Shown in pieces: positions 5,796 through 25,080 of a stretch of 64,000 bases of DNA. Source of the stretch: Vulcanisaeta sp. AZ3 (GTDB lineage Archaea; Thermoproteota; Thermoprotei; Thermoproteales; Thermocladiaceae); contig JZWU02000002.1 of NCBI GenBank assembly GCA_000960865.2, positions 1 to 64,000 on the forward strand, written 5' to 3'. The notes beneath the pieces were generated by a model. The model was not told the origin of the DNA. It worked only from the letters and a program-made list of their open reading frames with translations, and ran no database searches. Position 1 is the stretch's first letter, and every line of letters starts with the position of its first letter. The position numbers and the translations under genes are program-made.

Positions 5796-7001
5796 TCACA
5801 CCTCAGCATAACTCAATTGACTAAGCACATAAGCCCTAACATCACTATCACTCGGCATAGACTCAACAGCCTTACCATCCTCCACAAACCTCCTCAAAAG
5901 AGGCACAGGCCTAGAATTATCCGGACAAGGTGCAGGCTCCGAATCCCAGGGAACAACCTGATCATTAAGCGTATCCCCACACCTATAAACCTGCTTAAAG
6001 CCCGGCAACTTACCACGCTTTGTAATTGGAACCCAACGACTACTCTTCTCATCATAAGCCTCCACAATATCCATACTAATATCAACACTCGGCGGGAAGG
6101 CTATTGAAGTGCCAACGCCGAGCATATCCACAATATCCCTAAGCCTAACAACCTCATCCTCATCCACACCACCACTAACAACAATCTTAACATTCCTATA
6201 CCCAGCCAAATCAAGAGTCCACCTAACCTCACGCACAATAGCCTCCATACTACCACGCCTACTACTCGGCGTATCAAGCCTAACACCAAACAACCTATCA
6301 CCAAGCAACTTAGCAGCTAACATAGACTCTTCACGCTCGTCAAAGAAAGTATCAGCCAAAACAATCCTAGGAACACCACTCGGCATCACCTTATCAAACC
6401 ACACCCAAGCCATCGTATGATCCCCAACAGCATGCCTAAACACAATCATTAACGCATGAGGCATCGTACCACTCGGCTCAATACCAAGCAACTTAGCCCC
6501 AATCACACCCGCAACACCATCACAACCACCTATATACGCCGCCCTATCAACCATAGGCTGAACTGCTGGATGAACAACCCTAGCGCCAAAGAATAGACAG
6601 ACCTTATCACCAGCAAGCCTCTTTATCCTAGCAGCCTTAGTAGCCACTGAACTATAATGCCTCAATATACCTAGAAATGTAGTTTCATAAACAGCAAAAT
6701 CAACATAATTCCCCTCAACCACCATAACAGGCTCACCAGCCTTAAACAAAGTCCCCTCAGGCATCGCATATATAGTCACAGGCAACTCCTTAGCCGTCAC
6801 CAAATTAACAACCTCCCTCAAACCAGCAAAAACAGCCCACTTATAATCCCTGGGTAAATTAACAACATGAAACTCAGCCCTAACCCTAACCCTATCAAGA
6901 CCCGCAGCCTTAAGAACATCAACAGTCCTATTGAAATAAATATCCGTAGCCTCACCATTAAGAATCTCCTCATCCCTAGCAACATAAAACAACCTATCCA
7001 T
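5796..7001 (-). CDS. pncB: Nicotinate phosphoribosyltransferase
   Basis: [33 protein letters not shown]; start MDRLFY. Confidence 0.9.
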
Positions 7002-7108
7002 TGATCGAAATAGGCACCAGCAAATTTTAAGCTCTACACTGCAAAAACTGCCATGACAAACAGAAACTGCACTATTAATTTTTAAGAAACAACCACCTAA
7101 CCACTCAA

Positions 7109-7294
7109 TCACGCAGCCTTATACTTCCCATCAGTCTTTACTACCTTCCCATCCTTCACTAACCTCGTCAACTGGGCCTTAACAACATTAAGCCTCTCCT
7201 CACCAACAGCCCTCGCTATCTCCTCAACAGCAAACTCCTTATCCTTATTACCCGTAAGATAATCCAGAATCTTCTTCTTTATACCCTCGACCAT
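7109..7294 (-). CDS. Small basic winged-helix DNA-binding protein (61 aa)
   Basis: ILDYL...VEEIARAVG...[14 protein letters not shown]...KY wHTH pattern; TATA-like TTTAAAAA upstream. Confidence 0.75.
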
Positions 7295-7536
7295 ACAATA
7301 TGAAAGTATTTTCTAGTTTTTAAAGACACCGCTTACATATTTTGTGAGACGCAATCCATAACTCATTAAACTAATTAATAATATAAATTAACATACTTCT
7401 AATTAAAAACCAGAAATTTACCGCAAAACCACTGCAACCCCCTCTATTAATAACACATAAACCCATGAAAAATACCATAACCTCTACTCATTATTCACAT
7501 GTAAAAAGAGATTTACACAAGAGAGATTGCTTTTAT

Positions 7537-8580
7537 ATGCCCAAACTAGCACTCAAAACTGAAGTGCAAGAGTTCAGGGCATATTATGATAATGGAATTG
7601 TAATAGAATACAAAAGCAAGAAAATAATCATCGACTCACTAAAAAGACCAACAAAGCCATACGACGCAATACTAATAACCCACGGACACAAAGACCACGT
7701 AAACCCCAAAGCCCTCCACGGAGCCTACCCAATAATCATGAGCGAAGAAACAGCCACCATAATCAGAATCCGCGACAATGAAAGACTCAGGTACATAAAG
7801 GCCAACCCAGGCACTAAACTAACCATTAACGACATCACAATCGAAGCCTTCAACGCCGGACACATAATCGGCAGCCTATCCTACGTCCTCGACTTTAAAG
7901 ACCTTAGGATTGGAATCACTGGGGATTTTAACGTCGAATCCTCAATAATACTAAACGGCAACAAAAGCCTACCCGCAGACATCATAATAATGGAAGCAAC
8001 GTACGGAGACCCCGACTACGTATTCCCAAGCAGAGAAACAATATACAACGAATTAAAAACCATAATCGAGAACAACACAAAAAGCGGTAACGTACTCCTA
8101 ATGGGCCAACCACTAGGTAGAGGACAAGAACTAACCGCCCTGCTTAAGGACTACCCAATCTACATAGAACCCAACATAAAGATACTAAACAACGCACTCG
8201 GCCTCAAGTACGGCAAAGTACTCAGCGACTTACCCGAGACAGGCTCAATAATCATAACGGGCACACAAAAAAACTCCATGAATACAATCAACATACTAAA
8301 AACCAAATACAGCTTAACCAAAACCATTGCACTAAGCGGCATGTACGCAAGAGAATCAAGAACCAACAGACTTAGAGCCCTTGGCATTGAGGCAATCCCA
8401 CTAAGCAGCCACTCCGACTTCCCAGGCCTCGTGGATTTCGTACTCAATAGCGAGGCCAAATTCATCTACACTGTTTACGGAAACGCCGTAAAATTCGCCA
8501 AATACCTCAGGAAAGAGCTCAACATCATGGCAAGACCCCTCCCCACACCAAATCAATTAAGCATTGACTCCTTCCTATAA
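7537..8580 (+). CDS. MBL-fold/beta-CASP nuclease
   Basis: THGHKDH, AGHIIGS, TGDF, MEATYG, GRGQE, LSSHSD. Confidence 0.85.
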   Translation: MPKLALKTEVQEFRAYYDNGIVIEYKSKKIIIDSLKRPTKPYDAILITHGHKDHVNPKALHGAYPIIMSEETATIIRIRDNERLRYIKANPGTKLTINDITIEAFNAGHIIGSLSYVLDFKDLRIGITGDFNVESSIILNGNKSLPADIIIMEATYGDPDYVFPSRETIYNELKTIIENNTKSGNVLLMGQPLGRGQELTALLKDYPIYIEPNIKILNNALGLKYGKVLSDLPETGSIIITGTQKNSMNTINILKTKYSLTKTIALSGMYARESRTNRLRALGIEAIPLSSHSDFPGLVDFVLNSEAKFIYTVYGNAVKFAKYLRKELNIMARPLPTPNQLSIDSFL

Positions 8581-8611
8581 ATTTAAAATCACCAATAAGG
8601 AGCAGGACCTA

Positions 8612-9418
8612 ATGAGTAGGGTAATAACACTACTCACAGACTTCGGTTATGAATCATACTTCGTACCATCAATGAAAGGCGTAATACTAAGCCTAAACCC
8701 AAACGCCACAATAATCGACATAACCCACGCAATACCACCCTACAACATAATAAAAGCAGCATTCACCCTATGGGCCTCGTATAAATACTTCCCAAGAGGC
8801 ACAATACACGTAGTAGTCGTAGACCCAGGCGTAGGCACCACAAGAAGAGCCATAACCATAAAAACAAGGAATTACTACTTCATAGGCCCAGACAACGGAG
8901 TCCTCATGATGGCAGCCGAAGACGACGGAATAGAAGAAATAAGAACCATTGAGGAGAAAGCCTTCATGAGGCCCGCAATTTCTAGTACATTCCATGGACG
9001 CGACATATTCGCACCAACAGCCGCATACCTAAGCCTCGGACTAGACCCATCACAACTAGGCCCCAGAATCACCGACCCAATAAGGCTACCCACACAAACA
9101 AACACCATAACCAAAGGACACGCAAAAACCCACATAATCTACATCGATCACTTCGGAAACACATACACAAACATAAAAACCAACGACCTACAAACACTAA
9201 ACCTCAACTACGGAGACACAATAAGCATAAACATCCCCAAGAAAAACATCGAAATCAAGGCCAAGTTCCTGAGAAGCTACGGATACGCAAACGAAGGCGA
9301 AACCCTAACCCTCATAAACAGCGAAGGATTCTTAGAACTATCAATCAATAAAGGCAACTTCGCAGGTAAATACGGCGTAGAGGAAGGCGACGAAGTAGAG
9401 CTCACAGTAATTAAGTAA
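8612..9418 (+). CDS. SAM hydroxide adenosyltransferase (DUF62, chlorinase/fluorinase family)
   Basis: LLTDFG, VVDPGVGT, GPDNG, STFHGRDIFAP, IDHFGN. Confidence 0.92.
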   Translation: MSRVITLLTDFGYESYFVPSMKGVILSLNPNATIIDITHAIPPYNIIKAAFTLWASYKYFPRGTIHVVVVDPGVGTTRRAITIKTRNYYFIGPDNGVLMMAAEDDGIEEIRTIEEKAFMRPAISSTFHGRDIFAPTAAYLSLGLDPSQLGPRITDPIRLPTQTNTITKGHAKTHIIYIDHFGNTYTNIKTNDLQTLNLNYGDTISINIPKKNIEIKAKFLRSYGYANEGETLTLINSEGFLELSINKGNFAGKYGVEEGDEVELTVIK

Positions 9419-9962
9419 CAACACCATGCGAAACCAACTCAAGCAACTCCCTAAAATTCCTAACCAAAATTGCATCATCAACAAAATACTGCCTAGGCAC
9501 CCTACCATTAACCACATTCACATTCTCCATCATAAGCAAACTCATCTTAACACGAACACCACCAATCGAATAACCACCCAACGAACCATCATTCCTAACA
9601 ACCCTATGACAAGGCACAATAACAGGCAACCTATTAGCACCAGCCAACCTACCCACAGCCCTAGGACTAGTATTCAACAACTTAGCAATCTGCGAATAAG
9701 CAGCAACCCTACCCTTAGGAATCGACAACATAGCCAACTGAATAAGACCAAGAAGCCCAGAACCCAACTCCACATACCTAACCAACTCCTGAGGCCCCAA
9801 CAAACCATCCAAATACCTCATTACCAAATCTATGAACTCATCACGAACATCAATACGCACACCATCAACACCAACCCTCAACCTAACCAACTGAATCCTA
9901 CCATCACTAGCACAAACCTCAAGCACACCAATCCCCCTAACCGGCAAAGCAACACAACGCAT
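9411..9962 (-). CDS. ogt: Methylated-DNA-protein-cysteine methyltransferase
   Basis: YSQIA..., PRAVG, active-site PCHRV. Start codon uncertain. Confidence 0.9.
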   Translation of the reverse strand: MRCVALPVRGIGVLEVCASDGRIQLVRLRVGVDGVRIDVRDEFIDLVMRYLDGLLGPQELVRYVELGSGLLGLIQLAMLSIPKGRVAAYSQIAKLLNTSPRAVGRLAGANRLPVIVPCHRVVRNDGSLGGYSIGGVRVKMSLLMMENVNVVNGRVPRQYFVDDAILVRNFRELLELVSHGVVT

Positions 9963-10014
9963 CCACAGTACTTTTAGCAAAAAGCCCTTAAAAACCCTGA
10001 CCCGTTATTTAACT

Positions 10015-10296
10015 GTGATCGTTAAGGTTAAGCTCGTAGGAGTCCTCAAGGCATTAGCACTAGGCAAGGACCAACTAGAATTCAACAACATCAACAACAT
10101 TAGAGACATAATCAACAACTTAAGGACAATAAATGATAAATTATTCAAGAGAGTCCTCGACACCACAAGAGGCGAATTAATGCCAGACATCTACATAGCC
10201 ATCAACGACACAGACATAAGACTACTCAAAGGCCTAGACACACCAGTCAAAGACGGCGATGAGGTTTTAATACTAGCCTACATACACGGCGGATAA
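10015..10296 (+). CDS. Ubiquitin-like Urm1/SAMP/MoaD-family protein
   Basis: Beta-grasp pattern, IND.DIRLL.GLDT, C-terminal IHGG. Confidence 0.9.
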   Translation: MIVKVKLVGVLKALALGKDQLEFNNINNIRDIINNLRTINDKLFKRVLDTTRGELMPDIYIAINDTDIRLLKGLDTPVKDGDEVLILAYIHGG

Positions 10297-10818
10297 ATGA
10301 ACAAAACAATCAAACTAACCAGCGACATCGGAGAACTAAAGATTTGGCTAGCAACCACAATACTAAACAAAGCACTAGACGAAGAAACCCTAAACAAAAT
10401 CAAAAACGCAACACAGAACTGCGAGGAAACACTAGTAACCATAGCACCAGCAAACAAAATCCTCAACGCATGGCACATGATATACCCAACATACCTAAGC
10501 CTAAGAGACCACATAAGAGGCACCACTAAATACAAAGACCCAAGCCTAGGCGCACTAGCATACATGGCAGGAACAACACAACTAAGAAAAGCACTAAACA
10601 CACTAAACCCCATAGGGCATAGAGAAATCACCATAATAATAATGGGCACCAAAGACTGCACAACAAACACCATCAAAGACGTACTAAACATCATAAAAGA
10701 AATCACCACAGACATAATACTAGGCGCCGGCGCATACAAAAAATACGAAGGAAACTACAAAACAATCGAAGAATACACAAACAAACTAATCAACGAATAC
10801 ATCAACACATACACATAA
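10297..10818 (+). CDS. cgi121: KEOPS subunit Cgi121-like
   Basis: YMAGTTQLRKAL resembles the Cgi121 Y.aGtrQi..A motif; linkage to a Urm1-like gene is known in Crenarchaeota. Confidence 0.65.
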   Translation: MNKTIKLTSDIGELKIWLATTILNKALDEETLNKIKNATQNCEETLVTIAPANKILNAWHMIYPTYLSLRDHIRGTTKYKDPSLGALAYMAGTTQLRKALNTLNPIGHREITIIIMGTKDCTTNTIKDVLNIIKEITTDIILGAGAYKKYEGNYKTIEEYTNKLINEYINTYT

Positions 10819-10822
10819 CAAG

Positions 10823-10912
10823 CGGGCCCGGTGGGATTTGAACCCACGACCTACGGCTCTCTTCAAGGCACTTACCGGAGGCCGCCGCTCCACCAAGCTG
10901 AGCTACGGGCCC
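10823..10912 (-). tRNA. tRNA-Arg(CCG) with a 16-nt canonical 37/38 intron (10859-10874)
   Basis: GGGCCCG acceptor stem, GCGGC/GCCGT anticodon stem, CT-CCG-G|intron|A loop, GTGGG-TTCAAAT-CCCAC T arm; relaxed bulge-helix-bulge. Confidence 0.93.
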
Positions 10913-10960
10913 AAACAAAATAAGTCATCCCCATTTAATCTATTTTTCTCCCCCACCTAA

Positions 10961-11854
10961 TCACACAAAATGACCCATCGCAATACCAACACCATACAAC
11001 AAACAAAAGAGCGTATAAAACCTACCAGTCCTCGCATCAATATCCGACACACCCAACCTAAAACTCCTAACAAGCCCAGGAACCAACACCACTGTTACTA
11101 AAGCTAACAAGGAGGTCACAGGCAACACACCAACCAAGGAAAGCACCACCGTAATCACAAGCGCCAAGACCAATGAAGAAACATAAATCACAAAACCAAA
11201 CCTACCCGTCAACATGGCAAGCGTTGTAATACCAGCCCTCCTATCATACTCCCTATCCCTATAATTATTAGAATAAATAATAGCCAACATCACAAGCATC
11301 GGCGGTATCGAAACCAGGAAAACACTAGGCACCAAAACACCCAAAGAAGCCACAACAAAAAACCCACCAATCAACAAGGGACCCCACGTCAACGCAACAA
11401 CAACCTCACCCAAAGCCCTATACTTCAAAACAAAAGGAGGCCCAGTATAGGCATAGACAAGAAACACACCAATCAAACCAAACACCAAAACCCACAAACC
11501 AACCACAAAAACCAAATACAAACCCAACAAAACACCACCAACCAACGCCACAAAACCAACAAACACAGCAGTCCTAAGCCCAACAACACCACTCAATATA
11601 GGATGCCTCCTATAAACAGCCGTAGGGGAACCAGGCGTATCAACCCCATGCCTAAAATCAAAATAATCATTAAGAACATTAACACTAACATGAAGCAACA
11701 ACACGCCTATAAGGGCAATCAAGGCATACAAAACACCAACACCACGCAACAAACCAAGAAAATAAGCATAACCAACACCAACCACAAAAACAGCCACCGT
11801 CATAAACAAACTCCAAGCCCTAACCAAACCCAAAAACTCGGAAATCCTCATCAC
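10961..11854 (-). CDS. UbiA-family prenyltransferase, MenA-like
   Basis: NDYFDF..GVD, YTGPPF.LKYRALGE, NNYRD..YD..AG.TL. Confidence 0.88.
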   Translation of the reverse strand: MMRISEFLGLVRAWSLFMTVAVFVVGVGYAYFLGLLRGVGVLYALIALIGVLLLHVSVNVLNDYFDFRHGVDTPGSPTAVYRRHPILSGVVGLRTAVFVGFVALVGGVLLGLYLVFVVGLWVLVFGLIGVFLVYAYTGPPFVLKYRALGEVVVALTWGPLLIGGFFVVASLGVLVPSVFLVSIPPMLVMLAIIYSNNYRDREYDRRAGITTLAMLTGRFGFVIYVSSLVLALVITVVLSLVGVLPVTSLLALVTVVLVPGLVRSFRLGVSDIDARTGRFYTLFCLLYGVGIAMGHFV

Positions 11855-11911
11855 AAAAACAATTAATCAAACATATTTAAACATAAATCAATGAATTCAG
11901 TTAAAATAAAA

Positions 11912-12514
11912 CTACAACGGAAGCAGCACCATAATAAGCTCAAGCCAAACAACATGAGTTATTATAGACGCCACCAAACCAACCCTATCCGCAAGTAAAC
12001 CATCAACCAAACCCACAACAAAAGCACCAGCCACCAAGGCAGGATTAAAAGTCAACACATGAACCAACGTATAATAAACCATAGAAACAACCCAAGGCTC
12101 CCTACCCAAAACACCCCCAACCAACCCCTGCAACCCACCCCTCCAATAAACCTCCTCCATAAACCCAATAAGAACAAGAACCACAGCCAACACATACCTA
12201 CCAGCCATGCCCCTCACCATAGCATAAACAAGAACCACATAACGCGACAAACCTAAATACGTAAGAAAAGCATAACCACCAATAAAAATAACATACATAA
12301 TAAAAGCAAAAACAACACCAATCAACACAACCAACAACCTACCAAACCTAAACCAACGAAGATAACCAGGAAACCAAACAAGCGTCAACAAACCAAGCAA
12401 CAACGTAGACAACGCCATACCATAAACAAAATACCTACTAAACACATCAAAAGACAAAGGCCAAAGCAACACCGGCAACACAACATACACAACCCTCCTA
12501 ACATCACCAAACAT
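11912..12514 (-). CDS. CPBP (CAAX/Abi) family intramembrane glutamic protease
   Basis: MEEVYWRG, YTLVH, IITH motifs; start MFGDVR. Confidence 0.85.
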   Translation of the reverse strand: MFGDVRRVVYVVLPVLLWPLSFDVFSRYFVYGMALSTLLLGLLTLVWFPGYLRWFRFGRLLVVLIGVVFAFIMYVIFIGGYAFLTYLGLSRYVVLVYAMVRGMAGRYVLAVVLVLIGFMEEVYWRGGLQGLVGGVLGREPWVVSMVYYTLVHVLTFNPALVAGAFVVGLVDGLLADRVGLVASIITHVVWLELIMVLLPL

Positions 12515-12722
12515 AAACAACCACAAAACCCAAACAAACACCACATAAATAAACCTACCGCAACAAACCAAAACACCAAAAAGAGAAAAACAAACCAAAA
12601 ACACTATCGCAACTAATACACCAACTCATGATTCTACGCCAACAAAAAGAGTTCTTAAGAGATAGAAAGAAATCACCAAACCCTCAATAACACTTATTAA
12701 GAAGCTGAAAGTAATAAAAACG

Positions 12723-13277
12723 ATGACCAAAATAAATAGAATGAACAAAAGAGGTATCTCAAACGTAGTAGCCACAATAATACTCATCGCAGTAGCAATA
12801 GCACTAGCAGTAGCAGTAGCCGTCTGGGTCTTCGGACTAGCAGGAAGCGCAGCAAAAACAGCAACACTAACAATACAAGCCACCAGCCTCACCAACGTTT
12901 CCTCAGACAAGTCGGCTAATATTACATTCGTTGTTAGTAATCCATCTAGCTCAGGGGTAGGCATTAATGGTTTTACTCTCGGTAGCTTAACATGTACCTT
13001 TAGCCCACCAATCCAGGTCAGCGCAGGTACTCAAGGTGAGACAATAACATTTACACTAACCATTAGTCATAATGGTAATTTTACTGGTATTTCTGCAATC
13101 ATTGTTGGTAATACTCCAATTTACAGTAGTAAAGCGTCATCATCATCATCATCATCATCAACAACAACTCCTACATGTACTGGGATTCAGTCTGCAGCAG
13201 TTGGTGTTCAGTATAGTGGTTATTTAACTACTGCGACTGGCCAGACGTATCCGTTTACTGTGACTGCTAGTTCATAA
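12723..13277 (+). CDS. Archaeal type IV pilin (class III signal peptide)
   Basis: NKRG|ISNVVATIILIAVAIALAVAVAVW; Ser/Thr-rich beta domain with N-X-S/T sequons. Confidence 0.9.
   Translation: MTKINRMNKRGISNVVATIILIAVAIALAVAVAVWVFGLAGSAAKTATLTIQATSLTNVSSDKSANITFVVSNPSSSGVGINGFTLGSLTCTFSPPIQVSAGTQGETITFTLTISHNGNFTGISAIIVGNTPIYSSKASSSSSSSSTTTPTCTGIQSAAVGVQYSGYLTTATGQTYPFTVTASS
13137..13160 (+). repeat. (TCA)8 microsatellite encoding poly-Ser within the pilin
   Basis: Perfect 24-nt TCA tandem repeat followed by ACA ACA ACT. Confidence 0.95.
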
Positions 13278-14315
13278 GTGTTTAGTTTTAATTGGTTTTA
13301 AATCAAAATTGTTTTGTTTTCCATGGTTCTTTTTGAACCATGGGGTTTCTACTTCGTCTAGTCTCCATCTTTGTTTTGTAACTGCCTCCGTGGGGTTTAT
13401 GGTTATGCCTTCTTTGTAGGCCAGGAGTCCTGTTAGGGCTATCATTGCTCCGTTGTCTCCTGCGTATTCTGGTGGTACTACGCTTATTTTTGTGTTGAAT
13501 TCATTGGCTATGTATTGCATGATTTCTCTTAGCCTCTTGCTTCTGGCTACTCCTCCTGCTATTAGTAGTTCTTTCTTTCCCGTGAGGGCTAGTCCTCTTT
13601 CTGTTACTTCGGCTAGCATTGCGTAGGTTGTTTCGATTAGGCTTAGGCAGACATTGGGTAGGGGTTCTCCTTTTTTGATTAGTCTTAGGGCTTCTTCTAT
13701 TATTCCTGAGAAGGATACGTCTTGGCCTTTTACTGTGTAGGGTAGTGGTATGTATTTTGTGCCTTTGGTTGCGCATTCTTCTATGTGTGGTACGCCTGGG
13801 TTTGGTAGTCCGACTTGTCTTGCGAATTGGTCTAGGGCGTTTCCTATGGCCATGTCTATTGTTTCTCCGAAGATTGCGTAGGTTCTTCCTGAGTGGGCTA
13901 TGACCATTGTGTGTCCGCCTGAGACGAGGAGTACTAGTGGGTCTTCGAAGCTTGATGCCCATCTGGCTATTTCTACGTGGGCTACCCCGTGGTGTACTGG
14001 TATGAGGGGTTTGTCGAACTTTATGGCGAGGGCTCTTGCTAGGGTTGCTCCTACTCTTAGTGTTGGTCCTAGTCCTGGTCCCATGGAGAAGGCTATTGCG
14101 TCTATGTCGTTAATGGTTAGGTTGGCTTTTCTCAGGGCTTCCCTGAGTACTCTTGGTCCTACTGTGACGTGGTGATCCGCGGCTATTCTTGGGTGTATTC
14201 CTATACCTTGTGGTGGTGTGTATGTGTCGTTAATATTCACGAGTATACCATCCTCATTGGCTATTCCCACGCCGAAGGTGTGTGCTGTGGATTCTATTCC
14301 GAGGATTAGCGTCAT
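13272..14315 (-). CDS. kae1: KEOPS t6A tRNA threonylcarbamoyltransferase Kae1
   Basis: LGIESTAHTFG, GPGLGP, HHGVAH, VSGGHT, GETID, DNGAMIA. Confidence 0.96.
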   Translation of the reverse strand: MTLILGIESTAHTFGVGIANEDGILVNINDTYTPPQGIGIHPRIAADHHVTVGPRVLREALRKANLTINDIDAIAFSMGPGLGPTLRVGATLARALAIKFDKPLIPVHHGVAHVEIARWASSFEDPLVLLVSGGHTMVIAHSGRTYAIFGETIDMAIGNALDQFARQVGLPNPGVPHIEECATKGTKYIPLPYTVKGQDVSFSGIIEEALRLIKKGEPLPNVCLSLIETTYAMLAEVTERGLALTGKKELLIAGGVARSKRLREIMQYIANEFNTKISVVPPEYAGDNGAMIALTGLLAYKEGITINPTEAVTKQRWRLDEVETPWFKKNHGKQNNFDLKPIKTKHL

Positions 14316-14683: not shown

Positions 14684-14761
14684 TGTTAAATGGCTTGGTT
14701 TGGCTTAATTAATAACTTTGGGTTTAATGTTTAAAAGGGGGATTTGTTGGGGTTTGGTTGT

Positions 14762-15328: not shown

Positions 15329-15448
15329 GTTACTGCAGAGGTTACGCTCTACTTAAAATCATTAATTCCCTTTCCCCACCCTTAAGGGAGTTATATTTGA
15401 AGTGTGTATGTCGAAGGATTTTACAAGCTTATGGTGTTGTGGTTGTGT

Positions 15449-16804: not shown

Positions 16805-16850
16805 CTTCTTCTCTGTGTTGCTTCACTTTATAAATAATGTACCTTTATCG

Positions 16851-17252
16851 TTATGGGAGTTTTACGAGGAATCCGTGGTTTTGCATTAGGTGCAGTAGTG
16901 CGTCTGTGAATCTGCTTGTTTTGTAACCGCATTTTGCGCATATGAAGTACCTGTGCTTGTGGAAGGAGTTTCTGGAGTAGGGTTGGGTGTTGACTCGTAG
17001 CCATTGTGCGTATTCCTTGGTTTTGATTATGTGGTCGTAGAGGCCGCCGTGGTGTTGTACAAAGCCTAGTTTGACTTGGTCTGTGTGTGGTGTTATGGTT
17101 AGTTTGAATTCTTTGTTTGTGAAGGGGCATTTGATGATGCCTTCTAGGAAGGCTTTATTGTCCTTCTTGGCTGTGTATATTACTAGGTCTACGTACTTTC
17201 CCTTGATCTCGTTGCTTTTTCTTAATCCGAGTAGCCCTAGGTCTGTGTTCAT
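16851..17252 (-). CDS. Hypothetical protein with C-terminal C2H2 zinc finger
   Basis: CAKCGYKTSRFTDALLHLMQNH. Confidence 0.7.
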   Translation of the reverse strand: MNTDLGLLGLRKSNEIKGKYVDLVIYTAKKDNKAFLEGIIKCPFTNKEFKLTITPHTDQVKLGFVQHHGGLYDHIIKTKEYAQWLRVNTQPYSRNSFHKHRYFICAKCGYKTSRFTDALLHLMQNHGFLVKLP

Positions 17253-17297
17253 CGTGTTAGTTCATTGTAGTTGTGCTTTAAGCATTACTTTTCGAGC

Positions 17298-18020
17298 TTA
17301 TAATGTGTTGTGGTTTTTCATGATGTTTAGTAGGTCGTTAACGCAGTTAATTATGTGTGTTCTAACCTTGTTTGCTGTGTTTGATATTGTTTCGTTGAGT
17401 TCGTGGGGGTTCTTTGTTTGGGATATTATGAATAGTGATGAGGGTGATCTAATGTCTGTCTTGGCGATTATGTCTTCACAGACTCTTACTCTAACGATGC
17501 CTGTGGCTTTGCCCTCCGTGTATGTTATTACCTCTACTAAACTATTCTTGATTGGTTCGGTGATTAGATTTAGTGTTATGTTGTTGCCGCTGTATATGAT
17601 GAATATTTCGTCGGCTCCGGTTAGTACTTTGTTTGTCTTGCCGAGTTTGGCGTTGTCGAGTATTCTTCTCCAGCCGTCACCGATTGTCCTGAGGTATGTG
17701 TCGTGTAGGTTTAGTCTGGTGAGTAGGTATTTAATGGGGTCGTTGGTCTCGGTGTTCTTTAGGGTTATGTTGATTTTAAGTTCGTGGGATACGTTGAGTA
17801 GGAATTCGTCTAGTTTATCGAGTAGTGCCCTTAGGTAGTTAATGTTATTGCTTATTATTCTTATGGATTCCTCGTCATTAATCTCTAGGAGTCTTTCTTC
17901 GTAGGTGTTGTCAGGTCCGATGCCGATTAGGAAGAGGTGTTTCTCGTTAATGGATGCCTTGGTATTTATGAGGGTTCTATCCCTAACCTTAATGGTTCCC
18001 ATGGGTACTATGAACTCCAT
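17298..18020 (-). CDS. Hypothetical protein
   Basis: 240-aa ORF co-oriented with neighbours; no recognised motif. Confidence 0.65.
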   Translation of the reverse strand: MEFIVPMGTIKVRDRTLINTKASINEKHLFLIGIGPDNTYEERLLEINDEESIRIISNNINYLRALLDKLDEFLLNVSHELKINITLKNTETNDPIKYLLTRLNLHDTYLRTIGDGWRRILDNAKLGKTNKVLTGADEIFIIYSGNNITLNLITEPIKNSLVEVITYTEGKATGIVRVRVCEDIIAKTDIRSPSSLFIISQTKNPHELNETISNTANKVRTHIINCVNDLLNIMKNHNTL

Positions 18021-18092
18021 AAGTACTACATTCTCTAGGCCTGTATGTCTCTCTTAATTTTTATAAGGTGGTAATTATTTGGCTTGTTTTGT

Positions 18093-18854
18093 ATGGGTGA
18101 GTTTGAGGGTCGTGTTGTTGTTGTGACTGGTGGTACTAGGGGTATTGGTAGGGCTATTGCGGAGGCGTTTCTTAGGGAGGGGGCTAGGGTTGCTGTAACC
18201 TTTGTGAAGAGTGATGAGAAGGGTAGGGAGTTGGAGAGGGAGGGTATTTTGGCTATTAAGTGTGATGTTTCTAATAGGGATGAGGTTAGGAGGGCTGTGG
18301 AGCTTGTTCGTGAGAAGCTTGGTGATGTTAGTATTCTCGTTAATAATGCGGGTATAATGCCTTTGATGTCTTTTGAGGATTATAATGAGGAGGTGTTTGA
18401 TAGGATGTTTGCTATTAATGTTAAGGGTATAATTTACACAACCCTTGAGTTTTTGCCTCAGTTAAAGAGGACTAGGGGTGTGATTATTAACATAGCCTCG
18501 AATGCGGGTATTGGTACGGCCTTTGAGGGGACTACTTATTACGCGATTACGAAGGCTTCCGTGATTATACTTACTAAGAGGATGGCTTTTGAGTTGGGTA
18601 AGTATGGTATTAGGGTTAATGCTGTGGCTCCGGGTTGGGTGGAGACGGACATGACTACTGGGGGTAGGTCGAAGGAGGAGGTGGAGAGGACGAAGAGTAT
18701 GCTTAGGTCTAGGACTGTGTTAGGTATGACTGGTGTTCCCAGTGACATAGCTAATGTTGTTTTGTTCCTCGCTAGTGATAAGGCTAGGTACATGACTGGG
18801 CAGACTGTGGTGGTTGATGGTGGTAGAATAGATTATCTAACTCATGGGATTTAG
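18093..18854 (+). CDS. SDR family oxidoreductase
   Basis: TGGTRGIG, NNAG, YAITK, NAVAPG, VDGG. Confidence 0.92.
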   Translation: MGEFEGRVVVVTGGTRGIGRAIAEAFLREGARVAVTFVKSDEKGRELEREGILAIKCDVSNRDEVRRAVELVREKLGDVSILVNNAGIMPLMSFEDYNEEVFDRMFAINVKGIIYTTLEFLPQLKRTRGVIINIASNAGIGTAFEGTTYYAITKASVIILTKRMAFELGKYGIRVNAVAPGWVETDMTTGGRSKEEVERTKSMLRSRTVLGMTGVPSDIANVVLFLASDKARYMTGQTVVVDGGRIDYLTHGI

Positions 18855-18897
18855 TGAGGTTAGTTTTTAAACGTCTTGGGATTAATTTATTATTGAA

Positions 18898-20589
18898 ATG
18901 TTGGAATTAACCTTTGGGCAGTATTATGTGTTGGCTGTGCTTATTCTTGCGATTATATTGCTTTTAACGCGAGTTGTTAGGCATGATATTGTGGGTGCCT
19001 TGGTTTTAATACTCCTCGTGTTGGGTGGGGTGTTGAGTCTTGGGAGGGCTTTGGAGTTTTTTGTGTCTTCTACGGTGGTGGTGCTTGGTAGCTTGTTGTT
19101 AATTAGTAGGACCCTTGAGGAGTCGGGGTTTTTGGACAGGCTTGCTGAGGATTTGAGTAGGTTGATTAGGAATGAGTATGTGCTTCTGGTCATTGTTTTA
19201 TTCATGGTGGCGTTGACCTCGGGTTTTATGAGCGATGTGGCTCTTGTTGCCATATTTATGCCATTTATGTATGCATTATCTAGTATACATAAGAGGAGAT
19301 TGTCTAAGTATTTAATGCCTCTTTCGTATGCTGCAATACTTGGCGGTAGGTATACGATTTTTGGGACGAGTACGAATTTAATAGTTAATCAGTTTTGGTA
19401 TGAAAGTTTCCATAGGTATTTATCCGTGTTTCAATTTCTGTGGGTGGGTCTTGCTATACTCTTTGTTGGGTTGCCGGTGCTTCTGTTAATATACGTGTTG
19501 TTACCAAGTAGGGAGAATGTGGTTAAGTCAATAGATGATTTGAAGATTGGTGAGTATGTGATTGAGGCTAAGGTTAATGAGGGTTGTGAGTGGGTTGGTA
19601 GGCGTAGGCGTGATGTTGAGAGGGAGTATGGTGTTAAGATAGTTACTGTATTGCCCAGAAGGTTTCTTAGGTCGGGTGTTATTAATGAGGGATCTACGTT
19701 ATTAATGAGGGTTCCTACGGATAAGTTGCCTGTTATATCTTCAATTAAGGGTTTGTCATTGGCGTCTATGGAGCAGGTTGAGGGTGGGGAGGTTATTGAG
19801 GCTCTTGTGACTAGTAGTTCGTCTCTTGTTAATAATACGATAGCTAATGCTGATGTTCTTAATAGGTATGGTGTTAGGATTGTTGGGATATCCACAGGTG
19901 GTAGGAGAATTTACGGTGCAATAGAACATACGTCACTGAGGCCTGGTGATGCATTGTTGTTACTTGGTGAGGAGGGGGATGTGACTAGGCTTATGAGGGA
20001 CTTTGGGTTGATGCCTTTGAGGACTACGGGGGTTAGGCTTTTTAATGTTAGGAAGGGTGTTGTGTCTATTGCTGTTTTGGTTGGGGCTACTGTGGCGTCA
20101 TTGCTTGGTGTGGATATTTCATTGGCTTTCTTGATTGCTGCTGTGTTGCTTGTGCTTACGGGTGCTATTAATTATAGGAGGGTTTATCAGTATGTTGATT
20201 GGTCTGTGCTTGTGTTCATAGCCTCATTCTTATCCTTAGGTTATGCTATGAGTGTTAGTGGTTTGTCTGATGTGATTTCTCATGTGTTGCCAGCCTCGCC
20301 AGTATTATTATTCCTAATAACGGTTTTGATTGCGAACTTCGTTAATAATGTTTCGGCGGCTGCCATAATGACTCCAATAGCGTTAACGTACCCGAATCCG
20401 CTTGCTGCGGTTACTGTGGTGGCTATGGCATCCTCAACCACCTTCCTAACACCTTTTAGTCATCCAGCAAACCTACTTATTTATAGTCCAGGGGGCTATA
20501 GGGTGAGGGATTATTTAGTTATGGGTGCCCTAATTGTGCTTACGGTATTTATAGTAACTATGGTGTTCACGGGCTCACTGAAGATATGA
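18898..20589 (+). CDS. SLC13/CitM-type permease with TrkA-C domains
   Basis: TM blocks flanking two TrkA-C repeats; FGTSTN, LTPFSHPAN, GGYRVRDY. Confidence 0.88.
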   Translation: MLELTFGQYYVLAVLILAIILLLTRVVRHDIVGALVLILLVLGGVLSLGRALEFFVSSTVVVLGSLLLISRTLEESGFLDRLAEDLSRLIRNEYVLLVIVLFMVALTSGFMSDVALVAIFMPFMYALSSIHKRRLSKYLMPLSYAAILGGRYTIFGTSTNLIVNQFWYESFHRYLSVFQFLWVGLAILFVGLPVLLLIYVLLPSRENVVKSIDDLKIGEYVIEAKVNEGCEWVGRRRRDVEREYGVKIVTVLPRRFLRSGVINEGSTLLMRVPTDKLPVISSIKGLSLASMEQVEGGEVIEALVTSSSSLVNNTIANADVLNRYGVRIVGISTGGRRIYGAIEHTSLRPGDALLLLGEEGDVTRLMRDFGLMPLRTTGVRLFNVRKGVVSIAVLVGATVASLLGVDISLAFLIAAVLLVLTGAINYRRVYQYVDWSVLVFIASFLSLGYAMSVSGLSDVISHVLPASPVLLFLITVLIANFVNNVSAAAIMTPIALTYPNPLAAVTVVAMASSTTFLTPFSHPANLLIYSPGGYRVRDYLVMGALIVLTVFIVTMVFTGSLKI

Positions 20590-20705
20590 TAGATGAAGAG
20601 AGTTCATACTCTTATTTCCTTACCTCTCCTTACTCATTCCTCTACTAGCTAAGATAATGTGGGCATAAGGTTTAAAAATGAGTATCTGATTCGATATCGA
20701 TAAAT

Positions 20706-21380
20706 ATGAAAGTAATAGTTGCGCCGGGGCCTGTCTCATACCCATTAATAATGGCTACTAGGGTGATTAGGGATTTGGAGCTTGTTTTTGGTAAGGAGGG
20801 TAAGGATGCCTATGCTGTGGCTGATTCCCTTGTATCTCTGGCAAGGAGGGGTCTTAGGCCGAGTGTGGTGACTGTTAGGAGGTTATTAGTAATATACCCG
20901 GAGCTTAGGGGTCCGAATGTTGGTGTTTGGCGTAGGGGTAGTGCGGCTGATGTGTTGATTAGGGCGTATGCGGATAGACTTGGGTTTGGTGGGTTGAATT
21001 TTGTGTATGCTGATGATTGGTATTCATTAAATGATATGTTTAGGTCTGGGCAGGTTCAAAGTGTGGTTCTCAATAAGGCTCTTGTGGATGGTGGCTTGTC
21101 TCTTGAGGATGCCTTAGATTTACCGGGTGCCTGTGGTATATATGTAAATGGTGATTTGCAATACATAATCGATGCGTATGAGGCGGGTATTGAGTTGGTT
21201 AGGGAGGATCCGGAGGGATCTGCTGAGTATATTGCTAGTAAGTTGCCGATTAGGATTCCAAGGGAGTTTATTGTGAATGTACTTAGGAGGGTTGAGTATG
21301 GAATATTTAAACCGAGTATAGATAGTGTGGATAGGTTAATAAGTATTGTTAATAGGTATGGCGTCACCGGGTATGAGTAG
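20706..21380 (+). CDS. DUF3834-like substrate-binding-fold protein
   Basis: APGPVSYPLI, WRRGSAAD, PGACG; crenarchaeal family recognised from memory. Confidence 0.65.
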   Translation: MKVIVAPGPVSYPLIMATRVIRDLELVFGKEGKDAYAVADSLVSLARRGLRPSVVTVRRLLVIYPELRGPNVGVWRRGSAADVLIRAYADRLGFGGLNFVYADDWYSLNDMFRSGQVQSVVLNKALVDGGLSLEDALDLPGACGIYVNGDLQYIIDAYEAGIELVREDPEGSAEYIASKLPIRIPREFIVNVLRRVEYGIFKPSIDSVDRLISIVNRYGVTGYE

Positions 21381-22545
21381 GGGGCAGTTTTATGCTGGTT
21401 TGCTTCAGGCCTTGTTGGTGATTGTGCCTCTTACTATTGCTATTAGGGCTTCTAATAATATGTTATTAACGACTATACCTCTCTTGGCTAGGTATGATTT
21501 TCACTTCACGAATGCTCTTATAGGTGTAATTTCGGCTTTAACGTCGTTTGTGACATTCATAAGTAGTGGTATAATTAATGCGAGGCTTAGTAGTGAATTG
21601 AGGAGGGTTGCATTTATAGTTTCGTCCGTGGTCTACGCAGGTGTGTTTCCGCTTTTTGCGTTTTCTAGTGCGTTGACGATTTGGTTGTTGTCGGCCGTGG
21701 CTGGTTTTGTGCTTGGGTTTTTGATGCCTAATGTGATAACGTCGGCTAGTTTATTGCCGAGTAGGACTGATAGGGAGAGGCTTTTGAATATTTATACTTT
21801 GTCCTTGAGTACGGCGTTGGTTGTGGGGCCTGCGATAGAGTCCTTGATACTTAAGTACTTTAGTCTTAGGGAGTCCTTCATTTTCTTCACCATATTCCCA
21901 ATAGTAAGTGTAGTAACGGCGTTTATGTTGAAGTTTCCAGAGGAGCGGGGTAATCGTAATGGCATTGATTTTGGTGTGGTTGTTCATAATCCTGGCTTTA
22001 TAACTGCTGTTCTTAATATAGCGACGTATAACATAGTCTTCTCCTTCTTAATGGCGTTTGGTGGTATTTATGCTAGGGAGGCCTTTGGTATGGATTATTC
22101 TGAGATTGAGATTTTATTCTCTGTATTCTTTGTGGCCTCCTTCCTCGGTAGGTTGTATTTGTCGATTAGGCCTGCGGTGAGGCTTTGGCCTTATATGGCG
22201 TTGGCTGTTATGATGACTGTTACGGGCGTACTCGTGATAGCCCTCACTAATAATCCGTTGGTATATGCTGCGGCTTTGCTTGTGTTGGGTGTTCCGCATG
22301 GTACTACGTACCCGTTGTCCGTGGTCTCCATATCTAGGTCTTTTAAGCCTGAGGAGAGGAATGCTGCGAATAGTATATTCTTCTCCTTCATGATGCTTAT
22401 AGGTATAGTGACGCCTACGGTGACTGGTTATTTGGCTGATTTAATTGGTATTAGGAATACGTTTATTGTCTTGGCGCCGCCGATCATTCTAATCCTACTC
22501 CTAATGCGTAGGTATGTGGTTGCAGTCGATAGGCCGAGGGATTAA
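21373..22545 (+). CDS. MFS transporter
   Basis: About 12 TM segments; GYLADLIG motif. Confidence 0.85.
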   Translation: MSRGQFYAGLLQALLVIVPLTIAIRASNNMLLTTIPLLARYDFHFTNALIGVISALTSFVTFISSGIINARLSSELRRVAFIVSSVVYAGVFPLFAFSSALTIWLLSAVAGFVLGFLMPNVITSASLLPSRTDRERLLNIYTLSLSTALVVGPAIESLILKYFSLRESFIFFTIFPIVSVVTAFMLKFPEERGNRNGIDFGVVVHNPGFITAVLNIATYNIVFSFLMAFGGIYAREAFGMDYSEIEILFSVFFVASFLGRLYLSIRPAVRLWPYMALAVMMTVTGVLVIALTNNPLVYAAALLVLGVPHGTTYPLSVVSISRSFKPEERNAANSIFFSFMMLIGIVTPTVTGYLADLIGIRNTFIVLAPPIILILLLMRRYVVAVDRPRD

Positions 22546-22572
22546 TAATTATCTTTACATCAGTGATTCTTT

Positions 22573-23271
22573 GTGTCAATGCTTGGTTATGTGGTTAGGA
22601 GGCCTGATGTTGTTGGTGTGTTTGTGAGGAGGTTGAATAGGTTTGTGGGTGTTGCTGTTATTAATGGTGAGGAGGTTATGGTTCATATTCATGACCCGGG
22701 TAGGTTGCAGGAATTATTGAGGCCTGGTGTTAGGATTTATGCCTATGAGAAGAGTGGTGGTAAGACTAGGTATTACTTAGTGGCTGTGGATTTAGGTGAT
22801 GAACTTGTGCTTGTGAATTCGGCGATACATAATGACATCGCGTCCTGGCTTATTAGTAATGGTTTTGTCTTGAGGGATTATCGAGTGGTTAGGAGGGAGC
22901 CTGTGTTTGGTTCGGGTAGGTTTGATTTATTGTTAAGGTCGCCAATGGGTATGGATGCCTTTGTTGAGGTTAAGGGTGTTACATTGGAGGTGAATGGTAT
23001 TGCCGAGTTCCCTGACGCTCCTACGCAACGTGGTGCCCGTCACATGATGGAGTTGGCGAGGGCTGTGGGGCTTGGTTATGAGGCTTATGTGTTATTTCTC
23101 GTGCTTAGGTCGAGGGCTTTTGTGTTTAGGCCTAATGAGGCGCTTGATTCTAGGTTTGCTGAGGCGTTTAGGTTTGCGATGAGCCATGGTGTGAATGCAG
23201 TGGCTTATAAGTTAGTCTTGGGTCGGGATTGGGTGTTGAGGCCTGTGGGGCCCTTGAGGGTTGAGTTTTAG
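22573..23271 (+). CDS. sfsA: SfsA-family DNA/RNA nuclease
   Basis: [38 protein letters not shown]. Confidence 0.92.
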
Positions 23272-24609
23272 TTATTTAGCTTCGGGGGTGAGTATGTAGG
23301 TGTTTACGTTGGTTCTTGGAGATAATTCGTTGGAGATTGGTGTTAGCATTAATCTCTTAACCTCATTCATATCTCTTGTTTGTGCTAAGACCCATGATAA
23401 CTTAACAAATGCTACCTCTGGTATCATGTCTTCGGCTGGTATTACGCCTAGCGTTAGTAATTCTACGCCTCTTCTGTATACGTTTAGGTTTACTCTTCCG
23501 AATATTGTTTGACTCGTTATAACTATGGGTATGCCATTCTCGATGGCTCTCCTTATTGGATCGAGTAGGGGTTCTCTAACGTGGCCGAACCCTGTGCCTT
23601 CAATGACGATTCCGTGGTATCCCTTATCAATTAGGTGGTGAAGTATTTCTGGGTCCATGCCTGGGTAGAATTTGATTAGTGCGACTTTATCGTCGAATTT
23701 ATTCATGAGTATTGTATCCTCAGCCTTGGACTTGACTTGGTAATTGTTTGTATTGAGTTTGATCTCGAGTTTGTTAATGTCTACGTAGGCCACGGGCTCA
23801 TCATTAATACTTATGAACGCGTCTCTCCTTGAGGTGTGCATTTTCCTAACCCTGGTACCCCTATGCACTGCTATTAAGCCATCATTGGTTGAGGCATGCA
23901 TAATCACGAAGGAGCCTGCAAAGGGGGCGCGGGCGCCCACAAGCACAGCTGCAAGCATATTCTCAAAGGCATCGCTGGATGGCCTATCACTACTCCTCTG
24001 GGAGCCGACCAGTGCGATGGGGCCTGCTGGATTTCTAATGGCAAATGAGAGAGCCGCTGCTGTGTAGTGCATTGTGTCTGTTCCGTGGAGTATAACCACG
24101 CCGGACACGCCTTCCATGAAGGCCTTGTATGTGGCTTCTGCGATTTGGCTCCATCCCTGTGGTGTCATGTCCTCGCTGAAAATTGCCATTAGGTTTAGTA
24201 GCTCCACGTCCGCGATGCTCCTAATCTCTGGGTACATGGCGTATAGGTCCTCGAGGCTGAAGCTTGGGTAGACGGCGCCTGTCCTATAATCGACCTTAGA
24301 CATTATTGTGCCGCCGGTTGCCACTAGTCTAACCCTGGGTAATCCCGTGCTTTCAGCCTTTATGAAATGGCCAATGGGTATTGATGTAACGCCCTTGGAT
24401 TCAATGTGTCTCATTATTTCAACTCTATCGATATTGCTTACGTGAATACCTACGTTATAGCCATTATCGAGCTTGAGAACCATTATGTTAGGATCACCAA
24501 CACCTGGTTTTGGCAGGACAATGCCTCTTAGTGTTGTGCCGTCCTTTAGGTGAATATTAATGTCGTCAAACTCCCTAATCCCGTGCTTGTCAAGGAATTC
24601 ATTAAGCAC
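23272..24609 (-). CDS. gatD: Glu-tRNA(Gln) amidotransferase subunit D
   Basis: KLDNGYNVG, ATGGTI.SKVDY.TG, HGTDT, QRSSDRPSSD. Confidence 0.96.
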   Translation of the reverse strand: MLNEFLDKHGIREFDDINIHLKDGTTLRGIVLPKPGVGDPNIMVLKLDNGYNVGIHVSNIDRVEIMRHIESKGVTSIPIGHFIKAESTGLPRVRLVATGGTIMSKVDYRTGAVYPSFSLEDLYAMYPEIRSIADVELLNLMAIFSEDMTPQGWSQIAEATYKAFMEGVSGVVILHGTDTMHYTAAALSFAIRNPAGPIALVGSQRSSDRPSSDAFENMLAAVLVGARAPFAGSFVIMHASTNDGLIAVHRGTRVRKMHTSRRDAFISINDEPVAYVDINKLEIKLNTNNYQVKSKAEDTILMNKFDDKVALIKFYPGMDPEILHHLIDKGYHGIVIEGTGFGHVREPLLDPIRRAIENGIPIVITSQTIFGRVNLNVYRRGVELLTLGVIPAEDMIPEVAFVKLSWVLAQTRDMNEVKRLMLTPISNELSPRTNVNTYILTPEAK

Positions 24610-24641
24610 GGTATTCCTATCATGGCAATTGGTTAATAATT

Positions 24642-24980
24642 TTACTCATTTGGTGCTAGGTCTAGTAGCATGTTTATGACCTTGTTGTCGCGCTCTGTTG
24701 AGTGTCTGGTGATTATTATGTACTTGAGTTTGGATAGGGCGTAATCGCTGAGTAGGCCGAAGCCGTTACGTGAGATGCATAGGACTTTTTTACCACTGGC
24801 TAGGGCGTAATCAACCTCTGTCTGATCGCCCACATTTCTCAGTATTATTACATTTACGCCATCTTGTTCGACCACGAGTTCATCATCCTTAACAAGTAGT
24901 AGTGCGCATTCGCCAGGTTTTAGGTCTATTAATACTTTGTCTAGGTCGTTGTAATCGTTTATTCTGACGATCCTAACCAT
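24642..24980 (-). CDS. Hypothetical protein
   Basis: ORF upstream of and co-oriented with gatD. Confidence 0.55.
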   Translation of the reverse strand: MVRIVRINDYNDLDKVLIDLKPGECALLLVKDDELVVEQDGVNVIILRNVGDQTEVDYALASGKKVLCISRNGFGLLSDYALSKLKYIIITRHSTERDNKVINMLLDLAPNE

Positions 24981-25080
24981 ACCGAGACTTATGTACGGAC
25001 TAAGCATTTAGTACCCATACTCAAAATAACTAGTAAGCCTAATAACCCACTGATGGCCTTAAAAGGAAACATGATGAGTA

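Follow-up and report, generated by a model that had tools for sequence, protein, structure and literature searches.

Strong strand-skew arms flanking a variable pilin gene in Vulcanisaeta sp. AZ3 recur around rRNA, CRISPR and cell-surface loci in the Thermoproteales

Replication-associated strand skew at origins is known from bacterial chromosomes, from some archaea and from the human "N-domains", and in mitochondria a mutational gradient between the heavy and light strands reflects the time spent single-stranded. The present work concerns the window formed by the first 64 kb (positions 1 to 64,000) of contig JZWU02000002.1 (C2) of Vulcanisaeta sp. AZ3, in which a type IV pilin-like gene lies between two arms of extreme and opposite skew, and the skew zones of similar architecture found at other loci of the same genome and of other members of the order Thermoproteales. 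Strand skew is routinely read as the sign of an origin; these strong local skews flank instead ribosomal RNA (rRNA) operons, arrays of short palindromic repeats that are clustered and regularly interspaced (CRISPR), and cell-surface loci, and the strongest local skews that we have met in a cellular genome lie away from origins. Mutational strand asymmetry is known as a kind, while the placement, strength and architecture of the zones are new. We found no description of local keto-skew arms in Thermoproteales in the literature, and the available part of a 2026 article on archaeal skews (PMC12999951) holds no occurrence of Thermoproteales, Pyrobaculum, Vulcanisaeta or keto, its passages on rRNA operons concerning Haloferax.

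The zones, which consist of an A/C-rich arm, a neutral centre and a G/T-rich arm, resemble replication skew in the upward jump of G+T at a point, in the G/T-richness of the strand that leads outward 5'->3', and in their independence from gene orientation. However, they are far stronger (84–91% of favoured bases at fourfold sites), they range over 10–45 kb with a flat genome beyond, and their centres lie away from orc1/cdc6 loci and from the placed oriC1. With the mitochondrial gradient they share an extreme skew of neutral sites, the joint occurrence of C>T and A>G on one strand, a gradient with distance and a protein composition that is dragged along. Unlike it, they are bidirectional around many chromosomal loci of a cellular genome, for which no strand-displacement replication is known to us.

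Two recombination-related phenomena are also close. Strand-coordinated mutation clusters, which arise from long single-stranded DNA at breaks or during break-induced replication, are described for yeast and tumours in the available parts of PMC6786661 and PMC9262586. As there described, they too show strand-specific transitions over tens of kb with a strand switch at the centre, and single-stranded DNA of recombinational repair is the proposed substrate; these clusters, however, are single events with added or APOBEC deaminases, whereas the zones are an evolutionary equilibrium composition, and the polarity of the zones fits outward synthesis or ends-out tails rather than resection from a central break. 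The available part of PMC4033161 describes replacement flexible genomic islands, whose exchange proceeds by homologous recombination in the flanking DNA. Like these islands, zone centres hold glycosylation and surface-protein genes, CRISPR arrays are likewise hypervariable, and the pilin is multi-allelic between near-identical flanks. The differences are that no strand asymmetry is described for island flanks in that part of the article, and that rRNA operons are also zone centres.

The source assembly (G000) is a metagenome-assembled genome (MAG) of 1.51 Mb in 55 contigs, 90% complete by marker genes, with a G+C content (GC) of 41.8%. Keto skew, (G+T-A-C)/N on the + strand, was calculated in 1-kb windows, and in 2-kb windows for the genome-wide distribution, which has a standard deviation of 0.12 and a 99th percentile of |skew| of 0.42. 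In the window under study, the skew of the + strand ranges from -0.21 to -0.59 over 1 to ~12.9 kb, growing towards the centre with its peak at 11,501–12,500, and from +0.16 to +0.35 over ~13.2–23.5 kb, reaching ~0 by 26.5–29 kb. The cumulative minimum lies at 13,175, and in windows of 60–100 nt the sign changes between ~12,895 and 13,200, within the open reading frame (ORF) 12,723–13,277 of the pilin. The left arm extends to base 1 of the contig and may be longer than the part seen here. An earlier note on this DNA, made from the sequence alone, had described the + strand as A/C-rich on the left and G/T-rich on the right whatever the gene orientation, with a bias that is strongest near the centre, fades outward and switches within the variable part of the pilin, and the profile agrees with it in all these respects. 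Its G+T counts are exact (11 in 12,481–12,600 and 94 in 15,421–15,540); among 12,563 non-overlapping 120-nt windows of G000, that at 12,481 is the only one with at most 11 G+T, and 16 have at least 94. The description of 12,481–12,600 as mostly intergenic is not established, as this stretch is inside a mechanical ORF, 11,912–12,604 on the - strand, which corresponds to CPBP and has an uncertain true start.

At third codon positions, the skew (p3) amounts to -0.62 to -0.94 in the left arm and to +0.53 to +0.79 in most genes of the right arm, in either gene orientation; the third positions of Ogt, for instance, comprise A105 C77 G1 T7. First and second positions (p1 and p2) are far weaker than p3 in at least 25 genes of both orientations, and intergenic spacers have the sign of their arm. 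Comparisons were made with three genomes of the same genus (G004, G011 and G012), a further relative (G008), one genome from another genus of the family (G021), one MAG from another family of the order (G026), and two complete single-contig Pyrobaculum-type genomes of cultured strains (G029 and G034). The 84–91% of favoured bases at fourfold sites of the G000 arms compare with ~50% at the same sites in relatives; at conserved residues, the right arm counts A87 C92 G370 T596 (A344 C227 G244 T330 in G004), and the left arm A92 C33 G10 T2 (A37 C30 G24 T46 in a relative). The skew therefore persists at third-codon, fourfold and intergenic sites, where it had been proposed to be checked.

The shift in protein composition noticed earlier is also real. 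Amino-acid replacements, scored as toward or away from keto relative to G008 or G004, are directional in arm genes, with 45 vs 3 in Kae1, 64 vs 14 in the aminotransferase and 15 vs 79 in UbiA, so that the bias is able to drive replacements even in essential proteins such as Kae1. Those of the pilin have no direction (22 vs 21), and neither have those of the isochorismatase (6 toward, 9 away). The latter gene has a p3 of +0.30, compared with +0.75 and +0.78 in the neighbouring Kae1 and aminotransferase, and an identity to relatives of 87–89% (87% with G008), the highest of the syntenic block; it seems to have been imported, or converted, from an unskewed lineage in recent time. On the outward 5'->3' strand, T and G are enriched, T more than G, and A and C are low and about equal. 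The equilibrium T/C and G/A ratios are ~6–7 in Kae1 and ~20–40 in CPBP, and since both ratios are similar, C>T and A>G seem to be raised by similar factors, a pattern for which G·T mispairs on one nascent strand might account no less well than purely hydrolytic deamination. The skew of the window is an evolved, lineage-specific mutation bias filtered by selection.

These gradations also bear on the suspicion that the pattern is an artefact, be it a misassembly, an inversion junction at ~13 kb, or a strand-specific base conversion in the library. The MAG is split into 55 contigs and several zones touch contig ends, as an artefact might have it; nevertheless, such an origin is practically inconceivable. 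Both arms are present in the Logan contigs (contigs, not reads) of four runs from two studies, with identities of 95–99+%, the gene order UbiA-pilin-Kae1-hyp121 (10.9–25 kb) is kept in four relatives, with synteny ending at ~25 kb, and the same pattern appears in the complete single-contig genomes G034 and G029. The junction at ~13 kb which the earlier note had considered is thus contradicted by the contigs of other runs and by the conserved gene order. Finally, the bias is graded by codon position, which a chemical or assembly artefact would not respect.

The pilin ORF matches TIGR02537 with 40.1 bits (cut-off 20), consistent with a class III signal peptide and a hydrophobic N-terminal helix, and Pfam Pilin_N with 21.6 bits, under the cut-off of 25.2. 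Its identification as UpsA was rejected (27 bits, with a model cut-off of 130). The conserved N-terminus of the protein is encoded by DNA with the composition of the left arm, and the variable C-terminal part is unskewed. In one of the four runs (X1), a contig matches 11,567–12,570 with 2 differences and continues into 693 nt unlike the window, the next contig beginning at 13,286; the flanks differ at 2/1,004 and 9/2,192 positions. In another run (X2), long pieces stop at 12,560 and start anew at 13,904, seven contigs lie on the conserved N-terminal codons of the pilin, and one contig skips 77 nt. The centre therefore has the structure of a replacement island, with unlike central sequence between near-identical flanks in one population, as judged from contigs. 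The strain-variable segment is the neutral centre, and the allele borders, 12,570 and 13,286, are the inner ends of the arms. Differences between strains are ~10:1 transitions (208 vs 21 in X2).

The earlier note had explained the skew by recurrent replacement of pilin alleles, in which the 3' tails of resected incoming DNA are deaminated. The pilin is indeed multi-allelic, its variable segment is the neutral centre, and the argument from polarity is sound. What fails is the restriction to the pilin: the skew is not a pilin-specific device, because rRNA, CRISPR, and glycosyltransferase or giant-ORF loci have the same layout, and because the pilin loci of 10 of 10 congeners are without skew. 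Around Kae1, the ten other species with a match reach a maximum |skew| of 0.22 in 2-kb windows, one of them showing +0.12 to +0.18 over 4 kb. Several mechanisms are compatible with the skew, and the deamination of incoming DNA after resection is just one of them.

The architecture recurs throughout G000, where merged segments with |skew| of at least 0.2 sum up to 235 kb of the 1.51 Mb. Zones are found on C17, C19/C27, the end of C1, the start of C29 and C18, with weaker ones on C6, C10 and C3, as well as in G026, G029 and G034 (Table 1; the 2,009,313 bp of G029 were sampled over 920 kb, or 46%). The order is always - arm, neutral centre and + arm, and every strong flip goes from - to +. At C19/C27, a giant ORF of at least 2,270 codons is split over two contigs, whose overlapping ends differ by transitions only; its p3 is -0.09 and that of the adjacent protease +0.10, and in the next gene p3 jumps to +0.66. 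The giant ORFs matched no Pfam or NCBIfam family, while a lead from the Atlas, with scores up to 0.81, points to PEGA/CarboxypepD_reg-type archaeal proteins and suggests that they are surface proteins. Overlaps between contig ends joined only C19 to C27, the end of C1 and of C18 and the starts of C29, C17 and C2 staying unjoined. No CRISPR arrays are present in assembled G000; 23S rRNA is absent from this MAG, and only one side of the C29 centre is assembled. Regarding the suggestion that flips might co-locate either with pilin and surface genes or with initiator genes, surface-type loci are among the centres and the initiator loci inspected have no zones, although rRNA operons and CRISPR arrays are centres too.

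Runs of at least 24 nt made of A and C only number 21 in G000 and 0 in 345 kb of relatives' DNA. Counts of such runs over 62 genomes are confounded by Thr/Pro-rich linkers, repeated elements and CRISPR leaders, and a screen for 21-mer runs missed the rRNA arms of G029, which has a higher G+C. At the sampled run loci (not genome-wide), no long strong zone was found at 5 in G008 and at 6/8 in G004, with only weak rRNA arms in G008. In G034, identical 56-nt A/C-only runs, at ~216,732 and ~228,368, directly precede two CRISPR arrays with the same repeat, so that its CRISPR leaders are themselves two-letter sequence; ~3 kb of - skew lie beside the first of these arrays.

Several properties of the zones would be expected if their centres were sites of replication initiation, either canonical, dormant, or R-loop-primed at a heavily transcribed locus. 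All flips go from - to +, with G and T abundant on the strand that leads outward 5'->3', the signal falls with distance from the centre, and transcribed loci such as rRNA operons and CRISPR arrays are among the centres; forks moving outward would keep the lagging-strand template in single-stranded form for a long time, as the strand-displacement picture has it for mitochondrial DNA. The position of initiator genes makes this explanation unlikely. The single Cdc6_C match of G000 lies at C14:33220-33504, with no orc1/cdc6 near the centre of the window, and the last 14 kb of C14, beside this match, are unskewed. In G026, the sampled sides of the two orc1/cdc6 loci show no skew for at least 20 kb, and no zone exists at any of the three orc1/cdc6 loci inspected in G000 and G026. 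Adjacency to orc1/cdc6 is not a strict requirement for origins in Crenarchaeota. At the window centre, the spacers of 118 and ~50 nt are too short to hold an origin and are without ORB-like (origin recognition box) repeats; the only repeats seen there are A/C matches of low complexity and, between the arms, weak inverted ones, and the minimum GC is 0.335. The earlier note had already seen neither cdc6 nor an ORB in the window, which holds. Furthermore, the arms die after 10–45 kb, while forks must go much further in a genome of 1.5–2 Mb with few origins. The depth of the Logan contigs shows no local peak (16–25x in X1, 9–13x in X2), being a poor measure that is flat per contig.

Placed origins lead to the same result. 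In Pyrobaculum calidifontis JCM 11548, oriC1 has been placed at 309–378 nt, and oriC2-4 have been predicted at 514.4, 950.8 and 1,687.9 kb from transfer RNA (tRNA) genes near marker-frequency peaks (available part of PMC4009838, a secondary source); G029 was matched to these coordinates by two tRNA motifs at 514,500 and 1,688,049. No zone lies within ~80–100 kb of oriC1 or within 90 kb of the predicted oriC3. The zones of G029 centred at 466 kb, 1.19–1.21 Mb and 1.724–1.730 Mb lie 48 kb, ~235 kb or more, and 36 kb, respectively, from the nearest origin printed in that source, and the proximity of the first and the last to predicted origins speaks in favour of initiation. Origins are nevertheless excluded as a general cause of the zones, and the reading of the window as a replication origin, one of the two put forward in the earlier note, is unsupported, with no initiator nearby and no zones at orc1/cdc6 loci or oriC1. 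Since oriC1 is flat, ordinary replication leaves little skew, and the process behind the zones must be more mutagenic and of short range. Origin predictors based on skew or the Z-curve would be misled in this order. At each predicted origin of G029 (~514.5, 951 and 1,688 kb), the 1-kb skew passes from ~-0.1 to ~+0.1, possibly a true replication skew or an effect of gene orientation.

A G+T excess on the coding strand is a known signature of transcription-associated asymmetry in mammals, and a similar process could be imagined here, with strong central promoters, read-through outward in both directions and an exposed non-template strand. In this geometry the non-template strand of outward transcription is the G/T-rich one, and the centres include the rRNA operon, CRISPR arrays and the pilin. 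Against this stands the independence of the skew sign from gene orientation in the arms, p3 being alike for + and - genes. Upstream and downstream of the rRNA promoter the arms are equally strong (-0.45 vs +0.40 in G029 and -0.41 vs +0.37 in G034), protein-coding centres are unskewed at synonymous sites, and a read-through of 10–45 kb would be required. Thermosome and EF-1alpha are normally very highly expressed; in G000, 0/3 of their loci are centres or have arms. Taken as the cause of the zones, transcription is accordingly very improbable.

The skewed region of the window is a long-standing mutational scar, and not a device encoded by its genes. For the zones as a group, the reading that we rank first, with a probability of about 0.5, is that they are mutational scars left where recombination-linked exposure of single strands, or recombination-linked synthesis, proceeds outward from loci prone to recombination. 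It is placed first because the centres are mostly recombination-prone or variable, because allele borders are arm borders, and because the skew is absent from protein-coding centres and sets in abruptly at their edges. Recombination-linked transactions would start at the borders of the locus and run outward, and on each side of the short recombination-prone centre the outward 5'->3' strand would be repeatedly single-stranded, or made by unproofed, uncorrected synthesis. Neutral sites of this strand would thereby be pushed toward G and T, and sites that change amino acids would follow to a lesser degree. Exposure at hot-spring temperature would yield mostly transitions, and tract lengths of 10–45 kb would produce the decay with distance. 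The exposed or newly made strand could belong to the 3' tails of fragments that come in and take the place of the central allele (an "ends-out" exchange, which generalises the earlier idea), to break-induced or recombination-restarted synthesis leaving the locus, or to long gap filling after breaks.

The polarity fits outward forks, outward break-induced or restarted synthesis, 3' tails of incoming fragments and outward gap filling. From strand geometry, it should not fit 3'-tail deamination after resection at a central break, nor forks converging on the centre. Clusters of the resection type would flip from + to - on the + strand, assuming deamination of the exposed strand, and the strong flips are all from - to +.

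Several observations weigh against a recombination-linked scar. First of all, the opposite polarity would be predicted if a double-strand break simply occurred at the centre, followed by 5'->3' resection and by deamination of the 3' tails. Second, the divergence of the flanks is not raised at the centre; in X2, on few contig pieces, it amounts to 0.4–0.9% near the centre and 1.7–2.0% at 5.8–10.9 kb, and the decay of divergence away from breakpoints that had been anticipated around the pilin is hence not borne out. Third, in 10/10 congeners the pilin locus is conserved and fast-evolving but bears no skew. Fourth, G029 and G034 have a zone centred on an rRNA operon, G004 and G008 a weaker one, and the C29 side in G000 has a strong + arm. 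The 1.4 kb upstream of 16S are A/C-rich on the rRNA-sense strand in 28/30 genomes of the class (skew of -0.15 or below in 15/30 and of -0.25 or below in 8/30; -0.44, -0.35 and -0.28 in the congeners G012, G011 and G004), counts in which related genomes are not independent and to which divergent upstream genes could add about -0.1. Since rRNA operons are not replacement islands, being a variable locus does not by itself define the centres. The rRNA centres, the arm-less pilin locus of relatives and the lack of raised flank divergence keep cryptic initiation and transcription-linked asymmetry alive.

Lastly, no reason was found for the lineage specificity of the zones. Loss of the repair of deaminated bases was rejected as such a reason, EndoV being present in G000 and 61/62 genomes of the order, as was loss of UDG, with UDG-family genes in 31/31 genomes and two in G000. 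The sole EndoV gene of G000, whose product repairs deaminated adenine, is located at C17:9508-10077, inside a + arm.

A bolder version of the recombination-linked reading, which we regard as possible but somewhat doubtful, is that hyperthermophilic Thermoproteales carry an evolutionary-scale "kataegis", in which a few fixed loci, namely the rRNA operon, CRISPR arrays, islands for surface proteins and glycosylation, and in the window the pilin gene, would emit tracts of recombination-dependent, uncoupled synthesis or strand exchange of 10–45 kb in both directions. The single-stranded intermediate would be mutated until neutral sites become two-letter and neighbouring housekeeping proteins are remodelled.

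If recombination is indeed behind the zones, their arms would be a map, obtained from sequence only, of the start points of recombination-dependent synthesis or DNA exchange in uncultivable organisms. The skew map would then be a natural heritable record of where recombination-dependent replication or exchange starts, separate from Orc1-dependent origins, and it would give a handle on how far archaeal replication and repair rely on recombination. The presence of zones in cultured strains with complete genomes (G029, G034) makes the question testable at the bench. A more practical consequence concerns annotation. Stop codons are scarce on either strand of keto-skewed DNA, which leads to long false ORFs, and gene callers could thus take the wrong strand here. 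Real genes are faced by long antisense ORFs of nearly the same extent, for instance one of 183 codons opposite Ogt, and antisense pairs are found at 9411-9980/9426-9977, 17071-17838/17298-18020 and 10278-10739/10297-10818.

Table 1. Positions of the skew arms, their centres and related features in the window and in other zones (empty cells, no value given).
Genome or contig	Feature	Position	Strand	Description
Window (C2)	Left arm	1..12600	both	+ strand A/C-rich (-0.21 to -0.59), reaching the contig start; housekeeping genes on both strands: Cdc48-type AAA, L31e, THUMP protein, QPRT-like enzyme, MBL hydrolase, SAM hydroxide adenosyltransferase, Ogt, ThiS/Urm1, UbiA, CPBP
Window (C2)	tRNA gene, 90 nt	10823..10912	-	left limit of the block syntenic with relatives
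Window (C2)	Neutral centre	12601..13285	+	pilin promoter spacer and type IV pilin-like gene
Window (C2)	Right arm, strong part	13286..23271	both	+ strand G/T-rich (+0.16 to +0.35; p3 up to +0.79); genes: Kae1, hyp122, isochorismatase, class-III aminotransferase, two hypotheticals, SDR, CitMHS, DUF3834, MFS, hyp232
Window (C2)	Isochorismatase gene	14744..15328	+	unskewed patch within the right arm
Window (C2)	Right arm, fading part	23272..26500		step-down at a gene boundary, ~0 past ~26.5 kb
G000 C1	- arm	contig end		skew rises over ~45 kb to -0.54; last 2.5 kb neutral
G000 C1	54.7% GC patch	100700-103159		past the strongest - arm; carbamoyltransferase and truncated GT2 at contig end; probably foreign DNA
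G000 C29	+ arm	contig start		+0.48, decay over ~12 kb; centre: 5' 926 nt of 16S rRNA, + arm begins just upstream
G000 C17	Zone	- arm 0-3 kb; neutral 3-7 kb; + arm 7-14 kb		centre: GT1/GT2 glycosyltransferases and hypotheticals
G000 C18	- arm			
G000 C19/C27	Zone	C19 end (-); C27 (+ from 7 kb)		centre: giant ORF, then sedolisin/S8-like protease
G026	At least 4 zones			each with a neutral centre of 4-10 kb
G026	Centres			CRISPR arrays at three loci (one with only weak arms)
G026	Further centres			block of methyltransferase, hypothetical and 1,274-codon ORF; block of hypotheticals
G034	rRNA zone	- arm 718-723 kb; centre 722.65-729.94 kb; + arm 730-739 kb		16S-23S operon
G029	rRNA zone	- arm 1,711-1,724 kb; centre 1,724-1,730 kb; + arm 1,730-1,741 kb		16S-23S operon; - arm to -0.45
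G029	Weaker zone	442-478 kb (centre ~466 kb)		
G029	Further zone	~1,170-1,212 kb (centre ~1.19-1.21 Mb)		
G029	Non-rRNA centres	CRISPR arrays from 1,185.4 kb		732-codon ORF and GT2 beside GT1/GT2 genes; CRISPR arrays

Some further features of the sequences deserve mention. The step-down of the right arm is abrupt, p3 dropping from +0.72 in the gene at 22,573–23,271 to +0.29 in that at 23,272–24,609. At the tRNA gene that limits the syntenic block, contigs of other organisms pile up in 4/4 runs, with loose ends at 10,821–10,913. In the other genus of the family (G021), a small sharp flip without a neutral centre is found at ~35–40 kb of C189, where the skew changes from -0.47/-0.37 to +0.21/+0.42; this region has few ORFs (10.5–13.8 kb of the sampled stretch) and no Rfam match. 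Finally, C2 itself holds a second, moderate + block (+0.09 to +0.26), which follows a weakly negative stretch and extends from ~57.5–58 kb to ~72.7 kb of the contig.

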